From Candidatus Kuenenia sp. (GTDB taxonomy: Bacteria > Planctomycetota > Planctomycetia > Pirellulales > UBA1268), in assembly GCA_038144795.1 (NCBI GenBank), contig JAYQOK010000126.1, positions 1 through 11,332 of the forward strand: a DNA stretch of 11,332 nt. Reading direction: 5' to 3'. The first letter of the stretch is position 1. Each line of letters opens with the position of its first letter. Shown in pieces: positions 2,096-11,332 of this stretch. The notes beneath the pieces are model-generated. The model saw only the letters and a program-made list of their open reading frames with translations. It did not search any database and was not told the DNA's origin. The translations under genes and the position numbers were made by a program.

Positions 2096-2263
2096 GATTT
2101 TGCACTCTCCGACGAGTTTCCTCGTCGTGATTCGTGGCTTCTCCCCGCGGCAGGCACACTCAGCCCTCGCTTCCCTCCAACGGGGGTCTTGGTTATAACC
2201 GTTGGATCGGTCTTACGCGATTGGATGGCTCTGGTTTCGCCCCACAAAGCAGGGAGCAAAGGG
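2096..2263. promoter_or_regulatory. Divergent intergenic or promoter region between the kinase (minus) and the SPFH gene (plus). It contains a perfect 7-bp inverted repeat, cgacgag-tttc-ctcgtcg, at 2110..2127.
   Basis: A 168-nt non-coding gap lies between two divergent start codons. The palindrome sits 15 to 32 nt upstream of the kinase ATG. An AGGGAG Shine-Dalgarno-like sequence (2251..2256) lies 7 nt before the 2264 ATG. Confidence 0.35.
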
Positions 2264-4414
2264 ATGTCTGCACCGCTCAAAAATCACCGCTGGTCAACGC
2301 CCGATGAGATCTTCGCCCGCAGCCTTACGCTGGGCGATGCCGAACTCCCCCGCGGCTGGACGAAAAACAGCGTCGTCATCGAGCCCGGCACCAGAGCTTG
2401 TGCCGTAGTCGATGGCAACTTCATCGGCGATCTCCCCGCCGGCGAGTTCACGTTTCATGACTTCCGCGACAAACTGCAGTTTTGGCGGAAAGGCGAAGCC
2501 ACGCTGCTGCTCACCCGAACCGACGTGGTGCGACTGCCGGTCGATTGCAAGGGCATCGTCAGCGCCGACGAGGTGCCGATGGATATCCGCGTCGATGTCG
2601 GCGTGCAGATCGACAACCCCGTCGCGTTCGTCAAGAACATGATGGGCCCTCGAAAAGACTACTCGGTCAAGGAGCTCGCCGAGCGGCTCACCCCGACGGT
2701 GCGGCAGGAGGCCTGGGCGGCTACGGCCCGGATGCGGGTCGATGATCTGCGGGGCCCCGCGATGGTGACGAGAGTCTCCCAGCAGATCGGCTCGGCGATC
2801 TCCGACACGTTCAAGCGGTACGGGCTGAAGGTCTTCAGCATCGAGGGCGTGCTTATGCAGCCCACAGGGATGGAGCGGCACTGGGACAAGGTCAAGGAAA
2901 ACAATATCGAGGTCGCCGACGAACGGCTGACAAACAAGCGGCTCGGCCAGGACATCGGCATCCAGGAAGAGCGGCTGCCACTCGAGGGCAAACTTCGCGA
3001 CCTCCAGCACACTGGCGAGCGGGCCGCCATGGAGTCAGATACGACCCACGAGACCGCCAAGCTTGCCCACGAGGTAAGTACGCTGAGTGACCGGATTCCG
3101 CTCTTTGAAAAACTTCGCGACGCCGCGATCTCCAACGAGTTTGACAAGGCAAAGAGTGCCGAGGAGCTCAAGCAGCTCCTCGCCGCCGTAGACAAGCAGC
3201 GGCTGCTCCGCAAGGAGGAAATGGAGCAGTTGGCCGAAGGCTTCGATGAGAGAAAGGCCGATCGACAGTCGCTGCGGGATCATATCGTCACTGTGCTCGA
3301 CATCAATCGGGAGCAGGAAGTTGATGCCCTCCGGCTCGCCGTCGAACACTCGCTCGCGATTGCCGCTAAGAAAAATGAACTAGAACTCGCCGAGGCGACC
3401 AACTCGGTGGAAAACCTGGAGTGGCGCAACGAGATCGCCCGTGAGATCGAACTCGCCGAGAAGCGTCGCGAAGAGCGGAAGAAAGATCTCGCTGCGAAGT
3501 GGGAACGCATCCGCGAGACCCAGCGGCAGAAGCAGGATTCGTCATGGGAGAAGCTGCTTCATGAGCAGCGTGAGGAGTCGATCCGCACCGAACTGGCCTA
3601 CAAGGAGGCGGAGCGAAAGCGGCGACTGCAGCTGCTCGAGGTGGAAAATGCCGCCGAGGTCGAGCGGCAGAAAATCGTCGCCGAGCGTCTGCGGCGGGAG
3701 TTCGAACTGGAAATCGGTTCCCGCGAGTCCGACGCCCAGTTTGACCGGCTGAAGCGTGTTCAGGACATGAACTTCGAGGGTCACGCCCGCCAGGCCCAAC
3801 TCGACGCCGAGCTCAAGAGCCAGGCCGAACAGCGGGCCAACACGCACGAGCTCGAGCGGCTGAAGACGATGGGCACGTTGAGTGCGGAAGCCCTGATCGC
3901 CACCAGCGGCACAGACAATGCCAAGGCTCTGGCCGACCTCAAGATCCAGGAGGCCAAATCACAGGCGGAGATTCAGGCGGCCAGTCGTGGGGATCAGGAG
4001 GCTCTCAACCAAGAACGGCTTCGTATGTATGAAAAACTCCACGAGGCCGAGCGGGGCAAGGCCGACGCGATCGCGAGCGTCTTCAATCAGGCGCTCAAGG
4101 GCCAGCAGGATGCCGTCGCCCAGATGATCGGCGGGTTGGCTGCGGCCCACACCCCGCCGCGGCCGGTTTCGCCAGCGGCTCCGCCTCCGGTCGGCACCGC
4201 GGTGGCAGAGTGGCATATCGCCATTGGCGGCAATCAAAGTGGTCCCCATTCCGCCCGGCAAGTTCAGGTGATGGTGCAGCAGGGCCAGCTCGGCACCGAT
4301 GTCCTCGTCTGGAAGGCCGGCATGGCCGGGTGGGTCGCGATCGTGGAGTGCGCGGAGTTTTCGAGTGCCTTTGCGACGGTGCCACCGGTGCCGCCGCCAC
4401 CGCCACGGGCGTGA
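2264..4414 (+). CDS. Soluble flotillin-like protein: N-terminal SPFH/band-7 domain, long E/R/K-rich coiled coil, proline-rich linker and a C-terminal DUF4339/GYF-like domain.
   Basis: Start chosen as ATG 2264 with an AGGGAG RBS. The ORF-track start at 1754 would overlap the opposite-strand kinase. SPFH-like segment: NSVVIEPGTRACAVVDGNFIGDLPAGEF...LLLTRTDVVRLPVDCKGIVSADEVPMDIRVDVGVQIDNPVAFVKNM...YGLKVFSIEGV. About 350 aa of heptad-like E/A/R/K/Q-rich sequence follow (about 2900..3950), then PPRPVSPAAPPPVG. The C-terminus reads WHIAIGGNQSGPHSARQVQVMVQQGQLGTDVLVWKAGMAGWVAIVE (DUF4339-like: W..GP...L..G.I..T.VW..GM..W). No TM segment was seen. Stop TGA at 4412..4414. Confidence 0.8.
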   Translation: MSAPLKNHRWSTPDEIFARSLTLGDAELPRGWTKNSVVIEPGTRACAVVDGNFIGDLPAGEFTFHDFRDKLQFWRKGEATLLLTRTDVVRLPVDCKGIVSADEVPMDIRVDVGVQIDNPVAFVKNMMGPRKDYSVKELAERLTPTVRQEAWAATARMRVDDLRGPAMVTRVSQQIGSAISDTFKRYGLKVFSIEGVLMQPTGMERHWDKVKENNIEVADERLTNKRLGQDIGIQEERLPLEGKLRDLQHTGERAAMESDTTHETAKLAHEVSTLSDRIPLFEKLRDAAISNEFDKAKSAEELKQLLAAVDKQRLLRKEEMEQLAEGFDERKADRQSLRDHIVTVLDINREQEVDALRLAVEHSLAIAAKKNELELAEATNSVENLEWRNEIAREIELAEKRREERKKDLAAKWERIRETQRQKQDSSWEKLLHEQREESIRTELAYKEAERKRRLQLLEVENAAEVERQKIVAERLRREFELEIGSRESDAQFDRLKRVQDMNFEGHARQAQLDAELKSQAEQRANTHELERLKTMGTLSAEALIATSGTDNAKALADLKIQEAKSQAEIQAASRGDQEALNQERLRMYEKLHEAERGKADAIASVFNQALKGQQDAVAQMIGGLAAAHTPPRPVSPAAPPPVGTAVAEWHIAIGGNQSGPHSARQVQVMVQQGQLGTDVLVWKAGMAGWVAIVECAEFSSAFATVPPVPPPPPRA

Positions 4415-4444: not shown

Positions 4445-5461
4445 ATGGACGCGGTTGATCTGGTGGTTTTACGCCCACGTCTGCTCGTTGACTGGGGCGA
4501 ACTGCCCCAGCTTGGCCGCGTGGCTAGGCCGCTTTTTAGCCTGCTCGGCCCGAGTGCCGCAGGGCGGCCAAGCGTGCAGGTGACCGTCGATCGCGGGCTC
4601 GATCATGACGCCACCGACCCCCTTCGGCAGGTGCGAACCGAGGAATCGGGTTTGTGGACTTTTTACGTGCCGTTCAGCCTCACAAGCAACGGCCTGCCGG
4701 CGCTTCCCGGGCTCTATGTGATCGATGTCGCCGTCACGTTTCCCCATGCGCTGGCCGGGCAGCCGCGATTCCTGCAGACGCGGATTCGCCTCAACATTCC
4801 AGACGCCAGCAGCGGTCAGCGGGAGCTCGTCATCGACGGCGATGGCCAGTCGGTAGTCAATCTCGCCGGCCACGATCTGCGGTCATTCAGCCGCGTCGTG
4901 CTCAAGGGAGACGACAGCGCGATCATCAACCTGCAAAACTTTTCACAGCAACAGGAGGAGGCGAAAGCGACCGAAGCACCGGTCGTCTTCGAATACGAAC
5001 TCAAGGTCAATCACGACATCCACGAGCGATTGCCCGAGATTGTCGAGGTCTCCCAGCCGAGCAAGACAGATGCTCTCTCGCTCATCTGTGGTGACCGCCG
5101 CATCCATGTGATCGCCAAGAAGCGTGCCACGCTGGGCCGGCAGCGGCGGCCGGAAAACGACATCTGCCTGCGGTTTCTTCCCCGGTCCGCCGAGCATGAT
5201 GAAGGAAGCCGCGCCATCTCAAGGACCCACATCGCTCTTGATCTCACCGACGACGGGCTGGTGCTGGTCGACGAAGGCTCCGCGAAGGGGGTTGACGTCG
5301 ACTGCGACCCCGTGAAGGGCGAAAAGACATTCACGTATCTCGACGCCCACGGCAGCCGCCACATCGACTTGCCATCCCCACTCTCGTCATCGCTGTCGCT
5401 CGAAATGAGCTCACGGTTTTTGGCCGTGATCCCGACGATCCAGATTTTCGTTCTGATCTGA
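4445..5461 (+). CDS. Protein with a C-terminal forkhead-associated (FHA) domain. The N-terminal roughly 210 aa have unknown function.
   Basis: FHA signature in the C-terminal third: ATLGRQRRPENDICL...GSRAISRTHIALDLTDDGLVLVDEGSAKGVDVDCDPVKGEKTFTYLDAHGSRHIDL. This gives the GR, the SR.H and the D.gS..G..V-like motifs in the expected order. GGAAGG lies 5 nt upstream of ATG 4445. GC3 bias is strong through about 5400. The last roughly 20 codons are S/L-rich and low-bias, so the exact C-terminus is uncertain. Confidence 0.65.
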   Translation: MDAVDLVVLRPRLLVDWGELPQLGRVARPLFSLLGPSAAGRPSVQVTVDRGLDHDATDPLRQVRTEESGLWTFYVPFSLTSNGLPALPGLYVIDVAVTFPHALAGQPRFLQTRIRLNIPDASSGQRELVIDGDGQSVVNLAGHDLRSFSRVVLKGDDSAIINLQNFSQQQEEAKATEAPVVFEYELKVNHDIHERLPEIVEVSQPSKTDALSLICGDRRIHVIAKKRATLGRQRRPENDICLRFLPRSAEHDEGSRAISRTHIALDLTDDGLVLVDEGSAKGVDVDCDPVKGEKTFTYLDAHGSRHIDLPSPLSSSLSLEMSSRFLAVIPTIQIFVLI

Positions 5462-5568: not shown

Positions 5569-8500
5569 GTGGCCGATGAGGAATATGTCGTCCGCTACCG
5601 TCACGCCACGCTTGGCCGATCCGCCAAGGACCATGCGATCGCAATACCGATCCCCGATCACTTGAAGGGGGACCTGCGGCTGATCTACGCCGGGCGGATG
5701 TTCTGGTTGCACTCGGGGGGCCGAGCCGAGGTGGCAGTCGATGGCGAGCCGATCTCGGGGCCGTGCCTTGTGCCGCTGAGGTTCGGCCAGTGTCTGTCCA
5801 TCGATTCGCTGGTGATCCACGTAGCCCGTATGGCCCAGTGCCAGCTTGACGAGAATCCCATCCTGAAGGCCCCACCAGTCAGGCGCCCCGTTGTCCCCGC
5901 GCCACTGACACCGTCAGCCGCGATTCCTCCGCCATTGCCGCCGGCGATCGCAATCAAGGCGGGGCATTCCGAGCCGCCGCCATTGCCTCCGGTGACGCCG
6001 CTGCGGTCGGGCGGCCCGCCGCCCAGCGATCTGGCTCCAGTGGCGGCATCCTCCGGTGGCGCCCAGGCCGCTGCTGCCGATTCGATGGCCGTCGCCCCGC
6101 CCTCGAGTTCCATCGATCCGGTTCGCGATGCGCTCGCCTCGGTCGCCCTCATCACCTGCCGCGTGGGGCACGGGTCGGCCTTCATCGCAAAGCCCGGCCT
6201 GCTCGTTACCAACTACCATGTCATCGCCGACGATGCTGTCGAGGATCTCGCGGCGCTGTTTATTGATCCGGTGACCCACGCCCGCCGCGAATTCTGCGTG
6301 TCGCTTCTCGGTGAAGATCCCGAGCATGACATGGCGTTCTTGGCGGTCGATGCAGACCTGCCGCCGCTGGGGATCAGTTCACACTTCCAGCATCAAAACG
6401 GCCACCGCATCGTCGTCATCGGCAGCCCCGGGGTGGGCGGCAACGGCGAGCGGCTCGAAAATGTCGTCACCGACGGTCGGCTCGGGCCTGTGTACTCTGA
6501 TTTTGCATCGCCTTCCCGCTGGTCGCTCAGCATCACTCTCAATCCCGGCAACTCCGGTGGGCCGGTGCTCGACGCGCAGACGGGCGAAGTGCTAGGGGTC
6601 ACCGTCGCCAAGTTTACGACCGTGGAGGGCTTGGCTCTGGCCGTCCCCCACGACGTACTGACCAAGGGCCTTGAGCAGGCGGCCACCGCATCGGGTGACG
6701 AGATCGGCCGGGCCGAGTCAGCGCACCGGCAGCGCTATTGCCTCCGGAAGATCTCGGCGTTTGTGGCGAGCGCGAATGTCGCCTTGCACGAGTTTGCCGA
6801 GCATTGCGATCAGATCGAATACGGCATGACGACCGTCTCGGGCAACTCGCTGATCGGCAACGTTGGCAGCGGGTTTGCCAACAATGTTGTCGCCGCCCTC
6901 AATAACCTTGCGGAGGAGGTCGCCGGGCAGATCAATCGCCTGCAGGACGATCGCTGGTGCCGCACGGTGATCCGGGACGATTTTGCGCAGGCCTGGGCGA
7001 GCCTCGACGATCTGCGATACGCCCTTGCCGATGTTGCGCCATCCCGATCGCGGGCCCTGGTGCTCGAAAGTTTGGGGGCCACGCTCGCCGCGGTCGAGGA
7101 ACTGTGTGAATCGATCCGGATCGAAATTGATGGCTCGCTGCTCAGTGGCAAGACCGTCTTTGACGCCGCCACGGAATCATCGGCCGGCCATTCGCTCGCG
7201 CTGCAGCAGATCGCCATGGGGGGACACGTCGCCCGGAAGAAGCCCAAGCGGCGGTATCTCACCAAGTCGCGATTTACGATGGCCTGCACCTGCCCGACAA
7301 AGCTCTTCTACACGGCCAAGCCGGGAGAATACGCGAGCGTCTGGACCACCGATCCCTTGATGGAATCCCTCGCCAACGAGGGCAACCGGGTCGGGGCCCT
7401 GGCACGGCTCTATTTTCCTGAAGGCGTGCTCGTGGACACACTCGAGCATGACGAGGCGGTGCGGCAGACCGGTGCACTCCTCGAACAGCCTCAGGCGACG
7501 ATCTTCGAGGCGGCGATCCGCCACGGTGATCTCTTCATTCGGGCCGACGTGCTCGGTAAGACACCGACCGGCATCGATCTCTACGAGGTGAAGTCGAAGG
7601 GCTACTCCGAAGACGACGACGGCGACTTCACGACGAAGTTTGGTGTCGCCGCCGATTGGCTCCGATATATCCGCGACATCGCCTTCCAGAAGCATGTCGT
7701 GTCGCAGGCTTTCCCCGGTGTTTCTGTCCGGGCCCACCTTTACCTGCCGGATAAGTTCCGGGCGGCCGTCTCCGATGATCTCGCCATGAAGGCGGCGGCC
7801 CTGTTGAACGGTGAAGAAGCCTCCCTGACCGCCGAGGAGCTGGCGAGCCCGCTCTTGCGGGCGATCAATGTCGATGCCGTGTGTGATCTCGTGCTCAACG
7901 ACTCGTACACGCTCGGTGACAAAACCCTGTCGTTCGTTGAGTACGTGGCCGCCCTTGCCGACCACTACTGCCAGGATCAGAAGTTTCCGCCGCAGCTTTC
8001 CCCGACCTGTTTCACGTGCGAATTCGACGCGTCGGCGTTTGCCCTGGCCACGGGCGAGAAATCCGGGAAACGGGAGTGCTGGGCAAGCCTTCTGGGCTGG
8101 ACGGATCGAGACTTCGCCACGCCGCAGGTCTTCGAGATTGGCAATCTCCCGGCCGCCAAGAAGCGTTCGCTCCTCGAAGAGCGACGGCTTCACATGCACC
8201 AGCTCGAGGAGGCCGATATCGCACCACAGGCCGATGGGGAGCCGGGGCTGTCGCAATCGCAGCGGCAATGGATGCAGGTCACCAAGGCCGTCGGCGGCGA
8301 CACATCTTCGCACCTGGACCGCAATAATCTGCGGGCGGTCATGGTCGGCTGGAAGTATCCGCTCCACTTCATCGATTTCGAGACCTGCCGGGCCGTGATT
8401 CCGTTCCACCGCGGCAGTCGCTCCCGGGAGTTGGTGGCGTTTCAGTTTTCGCACCATGTGATGCATGCCGACGGGGCAGTCGAACACGCCGGTGAGTTTT

Positions 8501-9186
8501 TGTGTGCCCAGCACGGCGTTGATCCCGGCGTCGCCTTTGTCGAGGCATTGCAGCGGGAGCTGGGCGGAGATAACGGAGCAGTTTTGCACTATGCCCCGCA
8601 CGAGGTTTCCACGCTGCGGGCCCTCGCGGCCCAGATTCGTTCCCATCGCTCGGAGATCCCCAATGCGGATGAGTTGCTTTCGTTCATCGCCACGCTCGCC
8701 CCGTTTGGCGACGAGGTTGCGAATCGGCAGGTCATCGATCTCTGCAATCTGGTGAAGCGGTTCTACTACTCGCCGAGCATGCGGGGATCTAACTCGATCA
8801 AGGACGTCTTGCCGGCGGTACTCGACGAGTCGGAATTCCTGAAGCAAAAATACTCGCAGCCGATCTACGGCGCTGTGGGCGGGATTCCCAGCCGCAACTT
8901 CTCCGGCATGCGGTGGGTGGAGGAATACGACGGCCACATCCGCGATCCGTACTCCCTGCTGCCCCCGATCGACGGCGTTCATAATCCTACAGAAAAAGGC
9001 AATGGGCAGGTTCCCCGACTGCTCCGGAATGGCGGAGCCGCGATGCAGGCCTACGCCGATCTGCAGTTGGCCAGTTGGACTCCGCAGCAGCGGCAGGCCG
9101 TGGAACAGGCTCTGCTGCGATACTGCGAACTCGACACGCTTGCGATGGTCTTCATCGTCGAGGCGTGGCGGGAGTGGTGTCGGTAG
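5569..9186 (+). CDS. Large multidomain protein. Domains in order: N-terminal FHA-like domain, proline-rich linker, trypsin-like serine protease (S1/Trypsin_2 type), helical region, PD-(D/E)XK nuclease fold (DUF2779-like), and a C-terminal RNase-H/DnaQ-like region with a DFET motif.
   Basis: GTG start at 5569 (MADEEYVV...). The reading frame is open back to 5296 with no ATG/GTG/TTG, so the true start is uncertain. Residues 1-88: an FHA-like fold pattern (TLGRS...HSGGRAEVAVDGEPISGPCLVPLRFGQCLSIDSLVIHV) lacking a clear SR.H. Residues 100-185: a P/A-rich linker. Protease: LLVTNYHVIADD (His codon 6217..6219), EHDMAFLAVD (Asp codon 6328..6330), TLNPGNSGGPVL (Ser codon 6553..6555). Nuclease fold: RRYLTKSRFTMACTCPTKLFY...FIRADVLGKTPTGIDLYEVKSKGYSEDDDGDF (D...D/E-x-K arrangement, about 7250..7760). 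Later come CFTCEFD and GWKYPLHFIDFETCRAV (DFET, Asp codon 8374..8376), then LHYAPHEVSTL. Strong GC3 bias throughout. Stop TAG at 9184..9186. Confidence 0.85.
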   Translation: MADEEYVVRYRHATLGRSAKDHAIAIPIPDHLKGDLRLIYAGRMFWLHSGGRAEVAVDGEPISGPCLVPLRFGQCLSIDSLVIHVARMAQCQLDENPILKAPPVRRPVVPAPLTPSAAIPPPLPPAIAIKAGHSEPPPLPPVTPLRSGGPPPSDLAPVAASSGGAQAAAADSMAVAPPSSSIDPVRDALASVALITCRVGHGSAFIAKPGLLVTNYHVIADDAVEDLAALFIDPVTHARREFCVSLLGEDPEHDMAFLAVDADLPPLGISSHFQHQNGHRIVVIGSPGVGGNGERLENVVTDGRLGPVYSDFASPSRWSLSITLNPGNSGGPVLDAQTGEVLGVTVAKFTTVEGLALAVPHDVLTKGLEQAATASGDEIGRAESAHRQRYCLRKISAFVASANVALHEFAEHCDQIEYGMTTVSGNSLIGNVGSGFANNVVAALNNLAEEVAGQINRLQDDRWCRTVIRDDFAQAWASLDDLRYALADVAPSRSRALVLESLGATLAAVEELCESIRIEIDGSLLSGKTVFDAATESSAGHSLALQQIAMGGHVARKKPKRRYLTKSRFTMACTCPTKLFYTAKPGEYASVWTTDPLMESLANEGNRVGALARLYFPEGVLVDTLEHDEAVRQTGALLEQPQATIFEAAIRHGDLFIRADVLGKTPTGIDLYEVKSKGYSEDDDGDFTTKFGVAADWLRYIRDIAFQKHVVSQAFPGVSVRAHLYLPDKFRAAVSDDLAMKAAALLNGEEASLTAEELASPLLRAINVDAVCDLVLNDSYTLGDKTLSFVEYVAALADHYCQDQKFPPQLSPTCFTCEFDASAFALATGEKSGKRECWASLLGWTDRDFATPQVFEIGNLPAAKKRSLLEERRLHMHQLEEADIAPQADGEPGLSQSQRQWMQVTKAVGGDTSSHLDRNNLRAVMVGWKYPLHFIDFETCRAVIPFHRGSRSRELVAFQFSHHVMHADGAVEHAGEFLCAQHGVDPGVAFVEALQRELGGDNGAVLHYAPHEVSTLRALAAQIRSHRSEIPNADELLSFIATLAPFGDEVANRQVIDLCNLVKRFYYSPSMRGSNSIKDVLPAVLDESEFLKQKYSQPIYGAVGGIPSRNFSGMRWVEEYDGHIRDPYSLLPPIDGVHNPTEKGNGQVPRLLRNGGAAMQAYADLQLASWTPQQRQAVEQALLRYCELDTLAMVFIVEAWREWCR

Positions 9187-9217: not shown

Positions 9218-9289
9218 AAAAAACCGCCCGGAGCGGTCGGCCGGCATGCTCGCCGTCTACTGGCACCGGGCGGTTTTAGAGATGTTTTT
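9218..9289. terminator. Bidirectional intrinsic terminator between the convergent plus operon and the minus-strand DGR transcript.
   Basis: A perfect 12-bp stem, aaaaccgcccgg (9220..9231) / ccgggcggtttt (9266..9277), encloses a 34-nt loop that has its own 4-bp inner pairing. It is followed by ttttagagatgtttttt on the plus strand and preceded by aaaaaa at 9218..9223, which reads TTTTTT after the stem on the minus strand. It sits 32 nt after the plus-strand stop and about 100 nt downstream of the minus-strand TR. Confidence 0.55.
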
Positions 9290-9375
9290 TCCACCAGGGC
9301 TTTCACTGGCCGCGGCAGACGGGACGGCGATCTGTTCCGTCTGGACTCCGGGGATACTTCCCGGCAAGGCGGAAT

Positions 9376-9503
9376 TCAGGGCAAGGCGGAAGCCCAGGTT
9401 GTTGTTGCGGTTCGACGGGTCGTTCCTGTTGCGGTTCGCCGACCGGCAGTTCCTGGCGGTGTTGTTCCAGCTGCCGCCCCGGTTGACCCGGTCGGAGGCT
9501 CAT
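9376..9503 (-). repeat. DGR template repeat (TR), minus strand. The 5' boundary is at about 9500 or beyond; homology may continue into the RT 3' end.
   Basis: Read on the minus strand, 9376..9500 translates to GGSWNNTARNCRSANRNRNDPSNRNNNLGFRLAL, with nine AAC codons. It aligns base for base with 11205..11332 (offset 1829). About 25 of about 30 differences are at TR adenines (plus-strand T), and five TR adenines are unchanged. The 23 nt at the 3' end, minus-strand cctgggcttccgccttgccctga, are identical in both copies. Confidence 0.85.
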
Positions 9504-10510
9504 GGATCGCCCACCGGCAGGGATTTAATCACAGCATCGCGGTAGCGCCAACTCCGTGTATCGGCGCCCCGGGCAAACGCGGTCACCGCCTCAAGTCGGG
9601 TCTGCAATCCCCGCTCATCGAGCAGGCCGAGCCGATAAGCCTTGCAGAGGGTGCGGACCCGGCGAAGGTATCGCCGTCGACTGCGTTTCGAGAGAAGCGT
9701 GTGGGTCGGCAGGATCCTACAGCCGAGAAAATCAACGCCTCGCAATGACTCGACGACGCCCGCGGGTTTGAACTCCAAGCCGAGGCTGTTCGCCAGAAAC
9801 TCCCGGCAGCAGGCCTCAGCGGCGACGAGTCTACTGCGATCATTACTCCAGAGCACCAGGTCATCCATATAGCGGACATAGCCCCGAATCCGAAGATGTT
9901 CTTTGACATACCGATCAAGGAATCCCAGATAAAAATTGGCAAAGTGCTGCGACATGAGGCTGCCGATTGGGAGACCGCGGCCGATGCCGCCGCGAAAGCC
10001 GGCTATGATCGCGGTAAAGAGTTTAAGGAGCCGGCGATCCTTGAAACGGGCTGCGAGCCTATCGCGCAGCTGGGCATGCGGTATCGAATCAAAGCACTTC
10101 CGCACATCGAGGTGCACCCTCCACGAGAATGTTCGCGCAAATCGTGCTGCCCTCACCACTGCCCGCTCCCGTCCCTTACCCGGTCGACAGGCAAAGGAAT
10201 CGGCTATGAGCCACCGCTCGAAGTGTGGTTCACAGACGTTGATAATTGCGTGATGGAGAACCCGCTCCGCGAACGCCGGGGCCGTGATAATCCTTCGCTT
10301 GGGGTCGTGAATCTCGAACTGGTGAAATTGACCCACCGGATACGTGCCGCCCCGCAGGCCAGCCGCCATCTCCCCCAGCCGATTGTCAAGGTCATCGGTG
10401 AAGGCGATCACCTCGCGGCGCTGCCGCTTCCCTCGTGCCGCGCGCCAGAACCCACGGCGGAGGTTTTCCATTTCGATAATCGCTTCAAACAGATTGCTCG
10501 CCCGCCGCAT
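9500..10510 (-). CDS. Diversity-generating-retroelement reverse transcriptase.
   Basis: The minus-strand ORF contains MRRASNLFEAIIEMENLRRGFWRAARGKRQRREV (N-terminus typical of DGR RTs), ...RGLPIGSLMSQHFANFYL (the DGR-diagnostic IGxxxSQ motif), and GYVRYMDDLVLWS (YMDD catalytic motif). Start chosen at ATG 10510 (complement of cat 10508..10510), giving 336 aa. The track's start at 10969 adds 153 low-complexity residues overlapping the upstream gene and is rejected. Stop TGA is the complement of 9500..9502. Confidence 0.9.
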   Translation of the reverse strand: MRRASNLFEAIIEMENLRRGFWRAARGKRQRREVIAFTDDLDNRLGEMAAGLRGGTYPVGQFHQFEIHDPKRRIITAPAFAERVLHHAIINVCEPHFERWLIADSFACRPGKGRERAVVRAARFARTFSWRVHLDVRKCFDSIPHAQLRDRLAARFKDRRLLKLFTAIIAGFRGGIGRGLPIGSLMSQHFANFYLGFLDRYVKEHLRIRGYVRYMDDLVLWSNDRSRLVAAEACCREFLANSLGLEFKPAGVVESLRGVDFLGCRILPTHTLLSKRSRRRYLRRVRTLCKAYRLGLLDERGLQTRLEAVTAFARGADTRSWRYRDAVIKSLPVGDP

Positions 10511-10988
10511 CGGTCGCCTCAGGAACCGCCACGTCAGGTAAGCTGGCCAGAATGCCGAGCAACTGGTCAGCGTATTTCTCGACTCGGGCATGCCCGACGC
10601 CATCGATTCGCCCGAGATCCGTGGCGGATCGGCACCGCTGCTGCACGGCCTGCGCCAGTTGCTCATTCGTAAACACGGCATACACCGGAACGGCCTCGCG
10701 CTGCGCGATTTCTTTTCGGAGCTCTCTGAGCCGCGAGAAAACCACAAACTCATCGGCCGACAGCACCTGCTTGTAGTCGATCCGACTGCGGCCAAGCGGC
10801 AGCCCGCGCCGACTGTCGCCAGCCCCGGACGGAAGATGATCGACACAGACCGCCCAGAAAGAATCGGAGCCCTGTTCGACAAAGCGCCGGTCGATTGCCA
10901 CGACTCGGAGGCTGCCGAGAAACGCGTTGATTTCAGACTCGATGGTCGCCGGATCAAGCACCGGAACAATAAAAAACTTTAGCGGCAT
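10485..10988 (-). CDS. DGR accessory protein with a C-terminal HRDC domain (HRDC-type accessory instead of Avd).
   Basis: Minus-strand ORF MPLKFFIVPVLDPATIESEINAFLGS...DEFVVFSRLRELRKEIAQREAVPVYAVFTNEQLAQAVQQRCRSATDLGRIDGVGHARVEKYADQLLGIL. The last about 70 residues fit the HRDC pattern (F..LR..R..LA....VP.Y.IF.D..L..MA...P.T..EL..I.GVG..K...YG). Start taken as ATG 10988 (complement of cat 10986..10988). The track's 11174 start adds an R/G-rich low-complexity stretch that overlaps the target-gene stop. The gene overlaps the RT start by 26 nt. Confidence 0.7.
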   Translation of the reverse strand: MPLKFFIVPVLDPATIESEINAFLGSLRVVAIDRRFVEQGSDSFWAVCVDHLPSGAGDSRRGLPLGRSRIDYKQVLSADEFVVFSRLRELRKEIAQREAVPVYAVFTNEQLAQAVQQRCRSATDLGRIDGVGHARVEKYADQLLGILASLPDVAVPEATDAAGEQSV

Positions 10989-11166
10989 GAGCACAGCACC
11001 GACAAAGGGCACGGCCAAACGGCTTTCGTGGTTACGATTTTTTCGATTGCGCGCTTCGCTGCGCTCAGCGCCGCGGCTGCCGCCGCATACGTCTTTCCCA
11101 TCTCCCGCTCCGCTTCGGCCCCTCCGGTCGCCGGCATCCGCCGGACTCCCTCCGAGCCTCGCTTTG

Positions 11167-11332
11167 CTACTCAACCGCCTCCGCCGGACTTGCTCCAGAC
11201 GGACTCAGGGCAAGGCGGAAGCCCAGGATGACGTCGCGGAACGACGGGACGCCCCAGTAGCGGTCCGCCGACCGGCAGAGCCCGGCGGCGGAGCGCCCGC
11301 TGCCGCCCCCGAAGACCCCGGCGGCGGCACCA
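11167..11332 (-). CDS. 3' end of the DGR target gene: C-terminal C-type-lectin / FGE-like fold carrying the variable repeat. Partial: most of the gene lies beyond the window end.
   Basis: Minus-strand frame: GAAAGVFGGGSGRSAAGLCRSADRYWGVPSFRDVILGFRLALSPSGASPAEAVE, stop TAG (complement of cta 11167..11169). The ...CRSA.RYW......R...LGFRLAL ending is the common CLec-fold DGR VR terminus. Each AAC codon of the TR is replaced by D, Y, G, F, V, I, L, S or R codons. Confidence 0.8.
   Translation of the reverse strand, partial: GAAAGVFGGGSGRSAAGLCRSADRYWGVPSFRDVILGFRLALSPSGASPAEAVE
11205..11332 (-). repeat. DGR variable repeat (VR), truncated by the window end.
   Basis: Position-by-position alignment to the TR at 9376..9503 shows adenine-specific differences, detailed in the TR entry. 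The invariant GC-rich 23-nt 3' block at 11205..11227 is a candidate IMH-like element. Confidence 0.8.

Follow-up and report, generated by a model that had tools for sequence, protein, structure and literature searches.

A probable chromosomal diversity-generating retroelement of the HRDC-accessory class, with a conserved structured RNA 3' of its template repeat

The window analysed here, a whole contig of 11,332 nt, carries towards one end a reverse transcriptase (RT) gene, a small accessory gene and two diverged copies of a repeat, which raises the question of whether these parts form a system that diversifies a gene and, if so, of what class and by what machinery. The first-pass annotation had read the region as a diversity-generating retroelement (DGR), and this reading is borne out by a DGR-type RT, adenine-specific differences between a template repeat (TR) and a variable repeat (VR), a VR at the 3' end of an open reading frame, an HRDC gene and mutually consistent orientations. 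We consider the element very probably a chromosomal DGR of the HRDC-accessory class, and Planctomycetota the most likely host phylum. The limits first given, 9376-11332, enclose both repeats, the RT and the accessory gene, but the functional unit reaches down to about 9218. On the minus strand the cassette runs from the VR-bearing 3' end of the target gene through the accessory gene, the RT, the TR and a structured RNA to a U-run:

11167..11332, minus strand: last 54 sense codons of the diversified gene and its stop TAG (11167-11169)
11205..11332, minus strand: VR, ungapped match to the TR, cut by the contig end
10485..10988, minus strand: accessory gene, 167 aa, pI 5.2, N-domain plus HRDC
9500..10510, minus strand: DGR reverse transcriptase, 336 aa, Pfam RVT_1, E = 9e-18
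9376..9499, minus strand: TR, ungapped match to the VR, 29 adenines
9218..9382, minus strand: structured RNA downstream of the TR, counterpart of the phage 'spacer', from RNAalifold and a covariance model

The repeat pair was recovered by a repeat search as a direct repeat of 124-128 nt with an offset of 1829 and 78% identity over 9376-9499 and 11205-11328, in agreement with the earlier description (at least 125 nt, copies 1829 nt apart), and ungapped homology continues to 9503 and to the window end at 11332. The copies differ at 30 positions, 25 of which are adenines of the RT-proximal copy read on the minus strand; with 31 adenines in the 128 nt of that copy, the hypergeometric probability of this bias is 3e-16, and the statement that differences fall almost only at these adenines stands. 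Mismatches are distributed over codon positions 1/2/3 as 18/10/1. The TR copies the target's last ~41 codons, is itself non-coding and invariant, and has most of its adenines in AAC codons, of which there are 11 in the target frame rather than the nine first counted. It sets 17 variable codons, corresponding to ~1e16 possible proteins, and a stop codon is unreachable from any TR codon through changes of A. The 3' end common to TR and VR, GGCTTCCGCCTTGCCCTGA, is A-poor and G+C-rich, and its one adenine is the last base.

The VR belongs to an open frame that closes 35 nt past it, and the translation ends with GLCRSADRYWGVPSFRDVILGFRLALSPSGASPAEAVE before the stop. Because the window is the whole contig, the contig end cuts the target gene within its VR; the earlier placement of the diversified gene off-window to the right holds for the gene body, whereas the stop, the last ~55 codons and the VR lie inside. 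Exact-sequence look-ups with the RT, the accessory protein and the latter's 229-aa database version (P0001) found no longer contig. The target fragment, being too short, gave no match in a Pfam scan; its tail, CRSA.R....GFRLA, is typical of FGE-sulfatase/C-type-lectin targets, and full-length targets of related loci have the same ending together with an FGE-sulfatase domain (E = 1e-28 to 1e-52). These relatives' targets are Pkinase, Peptidase_C14 (caspase) or nSTAND1 proteins with a C-terminal FGE-sulfatase lectin-type domain. A hairpin expected downstream of the VR has no folding support (z = 0.29, weak and not significant); a short CCGCC-GGA-GGCGG stem is present at this place in loci L015, L017 and L005 and is imperfect in the window.

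At its left end, the contig holds a kinase gene on the minus strand (2095 down to 2) whose last encoded part is the beginning (~45 residues) of an FGE-sulfatase-like domain; the right-end fragment, encoded on the same strand, supplies the closing ~55 residues of a domain of this kind. Both ends could accordingly belong to one target gene, on a small circle or in a tandem with ~0.5 kb unassembled, and L003, L038 and L020, in which a kinase-FGE-sulfatase target immediately precedes the accessory gene, fit this arrangement. However, the contig ends share no sequence overlap, repeated FGE-sulfatase domains are an obvious source of assembly breaks, and two separate same-strand targets, which are frequent in relatives (L003, L088, L068), explain the picture equally well. 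We regard a single gene as unlikely, though by no means far-fetched.

The cassette layout recurs in dozens of loci, mostly from Planctomycetota and Verrucomicrobiota MAGs and from metagenomes. In the closest relative, L015 from sample 3300042197, where a 336-aa RT gene is called likewise, the TR differs from that of the window at 2 of 124 positions and the surrounding 2.4 kb is 88% identical. The VRs of the two loci differ at 16 of 25 columns that are adenine in the TR and at 6 of 93 other columns (Fisher p = 4e-9), and near-identical TRs with differing VRs read, at the level of sequence comparison, as evidence of past DGR activity. In keeping with a DGR, 37 of 69 metagenome contigs break off in or near the VR, at 60-520 nt from the accessory gene on its upstream side. 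The five non-adenine mismatches between TR and VR in the window lie at 11283-11330, all within the last 50 nt of the contig, and turn the conserved RV.RGGSW motif into GV.GGGSG, which suggests either an assembly error at the contig end or a decaying VR. If the latter, the target would no longer be diversified and the VR would drift by ordinary mutation; the clustering of these changes in the 5' part of the VR, where they destroy the conserved R, R and W of the lectin fold, is what such decay could produce, and the contig end within the VR hides the integrity of the target gene. Against an inactive element, the RT keeps all catalytic motifs, the accessory gene is intact, conservation against L015 is far higher in the TR than around it, the RNA retains every helix, and the non-adenine changes lie no more than 50 nt from a contig end, where assembly errors are common. 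Moreover, the aligned 94-nt VR core of L015 has 12 of 12 mismatches at adenines and keeps RVLRGGGW. Decay of the window's DGR is on balance improbable.

The RT has both motifs noted earlier, IGSLMSQ at 9947-9967 and YMDD at 9860-9871, in addition to the RVT_1 match, and its motif 4 fits the DGR-clade pattern [ILV]GxxxSQ. Among solved structures it comes closest to 8ub7_A (E = 2e-45 over residues 2-319, compared with 2e-17 for group II intron RTs), which we take, from its 328 aa, nine entries and IGSLTSQ motif, to be the Bordetella phage DGR RT (bRT); on this assumption the RT of BPP-1 is homologous to that of the window over the full length. That a group II intron, retron or defence-associated RT stands here beside a chance diverged duplication of a gene's 3' end can be dismissed almost entirely, since the NCBIfam matches that would favour it (group II RT/maturase at 100.7 bits against a cut-off of 300, Drt3a, retron RT) are, like all scores of non-DGR RT models in that collection, far under their cut-offs, the solved DGR-type RT leads the other matches by 28 orders of magnitude, an Rfam search returned no intron or retron RNA, and neither the adenine bias nor the repeat's fixed place after the RT stop in dozens of loci is expected of a chance duplication.

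The accessory protein of the element comprises a conserved beta-alpha-beta-beta N-terminal domain (aa 1-52), a disordered linker and an HRDC domain (aa 72-147). Pfam and fold both give HRDC, as first proposed, rather than Avd; no Avd-family Pfam match occurred among the proteins scanned, and the interval between VR and TR has no room for such a gene. Accessory gene and RT overlap by 26 nt in different frames. This composition is close to that of the Treponema denticola and Architecture C DGRs (PMC5758913, PMC4891356), in which a ~160-aa HRDC accessory likewise lies immediately upstream of the RT, overlapping it by 47 bp in another frame in Treponema, in which an avd gene is similarly absent, and in which, as is probable for the window too, the VR lies at the C-terminus of an FGE-sulfatase/C-type-lectin target. 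The order differs, being VR-TR-HRDC-RT in Treponema (PMC5758913, PMC4891356) and VR-HRDC-RT-TR in the window, and the hosts of window-type loci are, unlike Treponema, of the Planctomycetota/Verrucomicrobiota type. HRDC was recorded in 14 of 372 DGRs in the 2018 GenBank census (PMC5758913), against which the layout is indeed less common, as first annotated, but metagenomes hold at least 414 relatives of the accessory family. Within 2.9 million viral contigs the family occurs in just 3, and a phage origin was therefore rejected. The window cassette is a well-preserved example of a known but little-studied HRDC subtype and no new kind of system.

The TR begins at 9499, the base directly after the RT stop TGA (9500-9502), within the 0-3 nt reported earlier. 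The abutting layout is kept across the clade of related loci: in ~25 of 41 such loci with a TR/VR call, the TR lies 0 to +1 nt from the RT stop or overlaps it by 16-19 nt, and in ~10 others it starts 66-151 nt before the first in-frame stop, so that the RT frame reads in, or 10-25 nt after it. On the other side of the TR follows an RNA of ~160 nt that ends in a U-run. Its model is based on an alignment of 13 loci with RNAalifold, followed by a covariance model search, and consists of these elements:

9370-9379 with 9332-9339, minus strand: P0, the TR end paired with CGGAACAG (9332-9339), from RNAalifold
9346-9365, minus strand: P1 hairpin
9506..9515, minus strand: proposed 5' strand of the stop duplex, GGUGGGCGAU, in the last RT codons (V-G-D), from covariation
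9322-9331, minus strand: 3' strand of the stop duplex
9290-9319, minus strand: P3 hairpin
9285-9290, minus strand: A-run
9266-9277 with 9218-9231, minus strand: P4 long stem, then U6
9257-9267, minus strand: GGUGCCAGUAG, inside P4
9239-9256, minus strand: inner hairpin, inside P4
9230-9239, minus strand: CGACCGCUCC, inside P4

The covariance model matches 47 sources, namely the window and 46 loci, and the matches lie on the RT strand just 3' of RT and TR in all of them but L074, where the strand is opposite. In an alignment that was fitted to the model, 91.6% of cells are paired, against 69% in shuffled and 32-49% in slid controls, and 36 of 39 pairs vary on both sides. P0 pairs in 89-94% of cells, with covarying pairs such as UA:19 GC:10 CG:5 and GC:23 AU:8. 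The P3 hairpin covaries and is followed by an A-rich run (CAAAA or CGAAA) in the 13 aligned seed loci, which in the window reads AAAAAA. An Avd-binding stem-loop of the BPP-1 kind was not recognised, the P1 loop of most relatives being of GGAU type rather than GNRA or UNCG. All helices are kept in the window. Rfam at permissive thresholds gave nothing in the window at E <= 1, a sigma-70 promoter scan found no site, and a simple terminator scan missed the long P4 stem. One hairpin, CAGACGG...CCGTCTG, from the single-sequence fold of the window was rejected, as it competes with P0 and is out of register in relatives.

Nearly all of 33 loci form 8 to 10 of the 10 pairs of the proposed stop duplex, and compensatory changes occur, among them GAU:AUC, GGU:ACC and GAA:UUC. 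The figures for this duplex are somewhat inflated because the register was picked to maximise pairing: with that register, 85.5% of cells pair (68.6% shuffled, 37-64% slid), 9 of 10 pairs have changed on both sides, and cognate strands pair better than non-cognate ones (p = 3.6e-5). The duplex would explain why the TR abuts the RT stop, since its 5' strand consists of the last RT codons.

To our knowledge, everything understood about DGR mechanism comes from the Avd-dependent Bordetella phage element. As in BPP-1 (PMC5703328; bioRxiv 10.1101/2023.10.23.563531), the structured RNA downstream of the window's TR is predicted to fold back onto the end of the TR, and the window follows the element order of the BPP-1 RNA as taken from the cryo-EM description of the RNP (bioRxiv 10.1101/2023.10.23.563531; PMC5703328): a fold-back, 0-2 nt later a duplex with the segment just upstream of the TR, a stem-loop and unpaired adenosines. 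In both, the TR comes straight after the stop codon of the preceding gene, but the gene that provides the stop-duplex strand is avd in BPP-1 and the RT itself in the window. The accessory protein is a basic Avd barrel in the former and an acidic N-domain plus HRDC protein (pI 5.2) in the latter. For the 3' half of the window RNA (P4 with GGUGCYRGUAG and CGAACGCUCC, and the U-run) no counterpart is described for BPP-1, and whereas BPP-1 is phage-borne with a tail-fibre target, the window element is chromosomal and its target is no tail fibre.

By analogy with BPP-1, the 3' untranslated part of the RT mRNA (TR plus ~160 nt) would fold such that CGGAACAG pairs onto the TR 3' end, P0 thereby forming a putative template:primer duplex, with the priming nucleotide predicted to be G9332 or A9331 or a neighbour of these. 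The next 10 nt and the last RT codons upstream of the TR would form a stop duplex that confines cDNA synthesis to the TR. The RT may then self-prime, copy the TR into cDNA and misincorporate opposite adenines, probably aided by the HRDC protein in Avd's place. The cDNA would replace the VR, with GGCTTCCGCCTTGCCCTGA as a candidate homing anchor, and the predicted outcome is an FGE-sulfatase/C-type-lectin domain whose ligand-binding face can take up to ~1e16 forms.

A broader proposal, for and against which we would put equal weight, is that HRDC-type DGRs of Planctomycetota, Verrucomicrobiota and related groups share an undescribed RNA family that Rfam lacks, with a BPP-1-like 5' half and a clade-specific 3' half that docks the N-domain plus HRDC protein. 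The 5' half would comprise the template:primer duplex, stop duplex, stem-loop and A-run, and the 3' half the GGAU-capped P1 and P4 with its GGUGCYRGUAG and CGAACGCUCC loops, P4 doubling as terminator. If such a family exists, a self-priming RNA core would be ancestral to DGRs with the accessory protein as an exchangeable module, and the last RT codons would be doubly constrained, as protein and as stop-duplex strand. The RT, the 167-aa accessory protein and the ~300 nt RNA make up a well-delimited construct with which Avd-independent DGR function can be studied, and natural covariation variants can guide mutagenesis.

As genome annotation, the element is an ordinary one of an already catalogued type. 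Cellular 'clade 5' DGRs diversify putative antigen sensors of conflict systems (PMC8144416; PMC10907252; PMC7159879), and the relatives found here are alike in their target domains (Pkinase, Peptidase_C14 or nSTAND1 with a C-terminal FGE-sulfatase domain) and in that some loci have two targets; the same papers describe neither the HRDC accessory nor the RNA of the window's group. Genes for trypsin-like, FHA and GYF-domain proteins lie in the neighbourhood of the element. Cellular DGRs that act on lectin domains linked to kinases, caspases or STAND proteins, domains thought to be sensors, gain with this element a Planctomycetota-type case.

The coding part of the diversity-generating retroelement (DGR) cassette reads as follows.

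Stop TAG at 11167-11169, minus strand: target gene fragment, an open frame that holds the variable repeat (VR), ends 35 nt downstream of it and encodes a product ending in CRSADRYWGVPSFRDVILGFRLALSPSGASPAEAVE.
10485-10988, minus strand: accessory gene, 167 aa, with Pfam HRDC at residues 82-147 (E = 5.8e-17).
9500-10510, minus strand: reverse transcriptase (RT), 336 aa, overlapping the accessory gene by 26 nt (RVT_1, E = 9e-18).

These domain matches agree with the first-pass annotation, which had proposed an HRDC-type accessory gene and an RT with IGSLMSQ and YMDD motifs, both of which are present. The best solved relative of the RT is 8ub7_A (a 328-aa 'Reverse transcriptase', nine entries), matched over nearly the full length at E = 2e-45, while group II intron RTs reached only 2e-17 at best in the same solved-structure comparison. 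We take 8ub7 to be the bRT of phage BPP-1 on the strength of its length, its IGSLTSQ motif and how many entries contain it. The NCBIfam group II, retron and defence RT models all scored far below their cut-offs on the RT. In the AlphaFold model of the accessory protein (52 homologues, pLDDT 82), residues 3-52 form an N-terminal beta-alpha-beta-beta domain, which a disordered linker connects to the HRDC helices. This conserved N-terminal domain was found in 675 representative clusters, and among the 150 listed it almost always sits at or near the N-terminus. The protein is acidic, with a computed pI of 5.2, and HRDC accessories have been described as near-neutral (pI 6.9 +/- 1.3) compared with about 9.5 for Avd (Wu et al., PMC5758913). 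A database protein, P0001, matches the accessory ORF identically with a longer TTG start, its sole source being the window's NCBI contig.

A repeat search of the window yielded a direct repeat (9376-9499 and 11205-11328) of 78% identity with a start-to-start spacing of 1829 nt, whose ungapped similarity extends to the window's last base (9503 versus 11332). The earlier claim that the copies differ mostly at RT-side adenines is borne out, as 25 of the 30 differences fall at adenines of the 9376-9503 copy (31 A in 128 nt, minus strand; hypergeometric p = 3e-16), and codon positions 1, 2 and 3 receive 18, 10 and 1 differences, respectively. Because the differences are located at adenines, the RT-adjacent copy is the template repeat (TR) and the window-edge copy the VR. 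The TR holds 29 A within 9376-9499 and, in the VR frame, 11 AAC codons rather than the nine first counted; its 17 variable codons allow about 1e16 possible peptides, and A substitutions yield a stop in no codon. As had been noted, the TR abuts the RT stop, starting at 9499 next to the TGA at 9500-9502.

The window is the complete contig, and the target gene is therefore truncated inside the VR by the assembly end. Exact-sequence look-ups found no longer version of the contig, and thus the body of the gene was not recovered. The placement of the diversified gene off the window to the right is correct for this body, but not for the VR-bearing 3' end and its stop, which lie inside. The five mismatches outside adenines (T>G, C>G, C>G, T>G and a fifth) are confined to the contig's last 50 nt (11283-11332, minus strand) and turn the conserved lectin-fold RV.RGGSW into GV.GGGSG, while the closest relative, locus L015, retains RVLRGGGW; they represent either a contig-end assembly error or decay of the window's VR.

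Comparison with L015 (88% identity over 2.4 kb) bears on activity. The two TRs differ at 2 of 124 positions, while between the VRs 16 of 25 TR-adenine columns differ, versus 6 of 93 others (Fisher p = 4e-9). Near-identical templates combined with adenine-column differences indicate, at the level of sequence comparison, that the VRs have been rewritten at adenines since the lineages diverged. Among the 69 metagenome contigs with a visible upstream end, 37 break off 60-520 nt ahead of the accessory gene, in or beside the VR. Such breaks fit population heterogeneity at the VR, and could also arise where assembly confused the TR with the VR. Assemblies ending in or beside the VR include L001, L015, L016, L019, L034, L037, L048, L052, L077, L081 and the window's own right end.

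Downstream of the TR, the cassette continues into a structured RNA with the following elements.

9218-9382, minus strand: structured RNA, about 160 nt from the TR to a U-run, with blocks of conservation across loci that share only about 50% RT identity.
9370-9379 with 9332-9339, minus strand: P0, pairing of the TR end CUGAAUUCCG with CGGAACAG.
9346-9365, minus strand: P1 hairpin, between the two P0 strands.
9322-9331 with 9506-9515, minus strand: proposed stop duplex, pairing of AUCGCCGUCC, the ten bases right after P0, with GGUGGGCGAU, which codes for the final RT residues, V-G-D.
9290-9319, minus strand: P3, a covarying hairpin followed by an A-run.
3' half of the RNA, minus strand: P4, enclosing GGUGCCAGUAG and CGACCGCUCC, then the U-run.

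An alignment of 13 loci gave a consensus structure with compensatory changes in 19 of 40 pairs. The covariance model built from it detected the motif in 46 loci besides the window (47 sources in all), with matches on the RT strand just 3' of the RT/TR in 46 of the 47, and had zero matches in four distant RT loci lacking the accessory gene; Rfam gave no match to the RNA after the TR. In the covariance-model alignment, 36 of 39 pairs had changes on both sides and 91.6% of cells were paired versus 69% when shuffled and 32-49% with slid partners, figures that are inflated by fitting the alignment to the model, although the margin is large nonetheless. The stop duplex is conserved as well: across 33 loci, 8-10 of its 10 positions are paired in nearly all, with compensatory series such as GAU:AUC, GGU:ACC and GAA:UUC, or GGGCG:CGCCC, GAGCG:CGCUC and CAGUG:CGCUG. 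Double changes occur in 9 of its 10 pairs, cognate pairings are stabler than non-cognate ones (p = 3.6e-5), and 85.5% of cells are paired versus 68.6% when shuffled, in a register picked per locus for maximal pairing that still lies 3-8 nt upstream of the TR start wherever this is known.

The BPP-1 DGR of Bordetella phage offers a close comparison. Its spacer 3' of the TR pairs back on TR 117-129, and cDNA is primed by spacer A56 (PMC5703328); two nucleotides on, the 'stop' duplex is formed by spacer 59-70 and the avd 3' end, which lies directly upstream of the TR, and a short stem-loop and unpaired adenosines come next (bioRxiv 10.1101/2023.10.23.563531). The window RNA has the same order of TR fold-back (P0), stop duplex, hairpin (P3) and A-run, whereas the stop-duplex strand 5' of the TR comes from the RT gene end in the window's clade and from avd in the phage. 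This would offer a reason why the TR directly follows the RT in this clade: the stretch right before the TR would belong to the working RNA, and here that stretch is the end of the RT gene. The 3' half of the RNA (P4 and the U-run) is without a described counterpart and, together with P1, is a candidate for HRDC-protein binding. By inspection (alignment A4, columns 18-100), most relatives have a GGAU-type loop (CGGAUG, UGGAUA, UGGAUG), which may bind protein, at the tip of P1; the loop deviates in the window and L015 (GAAGUAUC, GAA). A 66-aa minus-strand ORF (9303-9503), probably spurious, opens with an ATG that shares bases with the RT stop (ATGA) and translates the TR in a different frame into a P/Q/E-rich product. 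At the 3' boundary of the TR and VR (9368-9379 versus 11197-11208, and the same place in relatives), fixed, clade-consistent non-adenine differences lie just beyond the common G+C-rich end, where the TR has GAAUUCC or AGCUC and the VR GAGUCC, AGUUC or AGGUC. Judged by sequence, they resemble the IMH/IMH* distinction, the source of homing direction.

An RT search returned ten genome loci (45-56% identity) in MAGs of Planctomycetota, Pirellula, Planctomicrobium, Zavarzinella, Verrucomicrobiales and Kiritimatiellae, and the accessory-protein profile gave at least 414 metagenome matches, with 80 loci retained. Only three accessory matches occurred among 2.9 million viral contigs; in the putative viral contigs L097-L099 (IMG/VR), the accessory protein is 48% identical. 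The RT directly follows the accessory gene in almost every locus, and an adenine-biased TR/VR pair was detectable in 41 loci, window included, with the VR ending 126-384 nt upstream of the accessory gene. In about 25 of the 41, the TR begins 0 to +1 nt past the RT stop or shares 16-19 nt with the RT 3' end; in five it begins 10-25 nt past the stop; and in about ten it precedes the first in-frame stop by 66-151 nt, which leaves the RT frame open into or across the TR. The RT-match frame is open in this way in L008, L034, L070, L071, L075, L076, L081, L085 and L093, and the listed RT ORF of L008 (5184-6335) covers the whole TR. HRDC accessories were recognised as early as the first DGR surveys and characterize 14 of 372 DGRs ('Architecture C') in Wu et al. 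2018, the type being Treponema denticola (PMC5758913, PMC4891356), with the order VR-TR-HRDC-RT as opposed to VR-HRDC-RT-TR in the window. Planctomycetes-Verrucomicrobia-Chlamydiae DGRs were included in a survey of 31,007 elements (Roux et al. 2021, PMC8144416). With both groups already catalogued, the window element belongs to a known category; the accessory N-terminal domain and the RNA analysis add to published descriptions and leave that category unchanged.

In the relatives, complete targets end in an FGE-sulfatase domain (E = 2e-28 to 2e-52) fused to a protein kinase, caspase (Peptidase_C14) or kinase-nSTAND1, the target type of conflict-system-linked cellular DGRs (PMC7159879, PMC10907252). 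One TR matches two VRs in several loci, either inside one large gene (L008, L044) or in two genes (L003, L068, L088), the second of which is encoded on the same strand as the RT, 1-4 kb downstream. The remainder of the window holds the following genes.

2-2095 (frame open from 2212), minus strand: kinase ORF running off the left contig end, and for that reason absent from the ORF listing.
About 2225-4414, plus strand: SPFH/Band-7 and GYF_2 protein, convergent with the cassette.
4445-5461, plus strand: FHA-domain protein, convergent with the cassette.
5569-9186, plus strand: Trypsin_2 and DUF2779 protein, 1205 aa, convergent with the cassette.

The kinase ORF combines a Ser/Thr kinase domain (Pkinase, E = 2.6e-47) with a double zinc ribbon and a long helical linker and is cut off ~45 residues into an FGE-sulfatase-like domain, whose beginning shows 48% identity to its counterpart in the L003 target; both contig ends thus fall within FGE-sulfatase-type genes. 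As it shares the architecture of the relatives' targets, this ORF is a candidate second target or, if the contig ends join, the candidate body of the truncated one. GYF and trypsin genes have been reported near FGS-domain systems in planctomycetes (Kaur et al. 2020, PMC7159879), and a functional link of the convergent neighbours to the DGR target is possible; the Trypsin_2/DUF2779 gene also adjoins the cassette in L015. The listed start of the SPFH/Band-7 ORF at 1754, which overlaps the kinase gene, is probably wrong.
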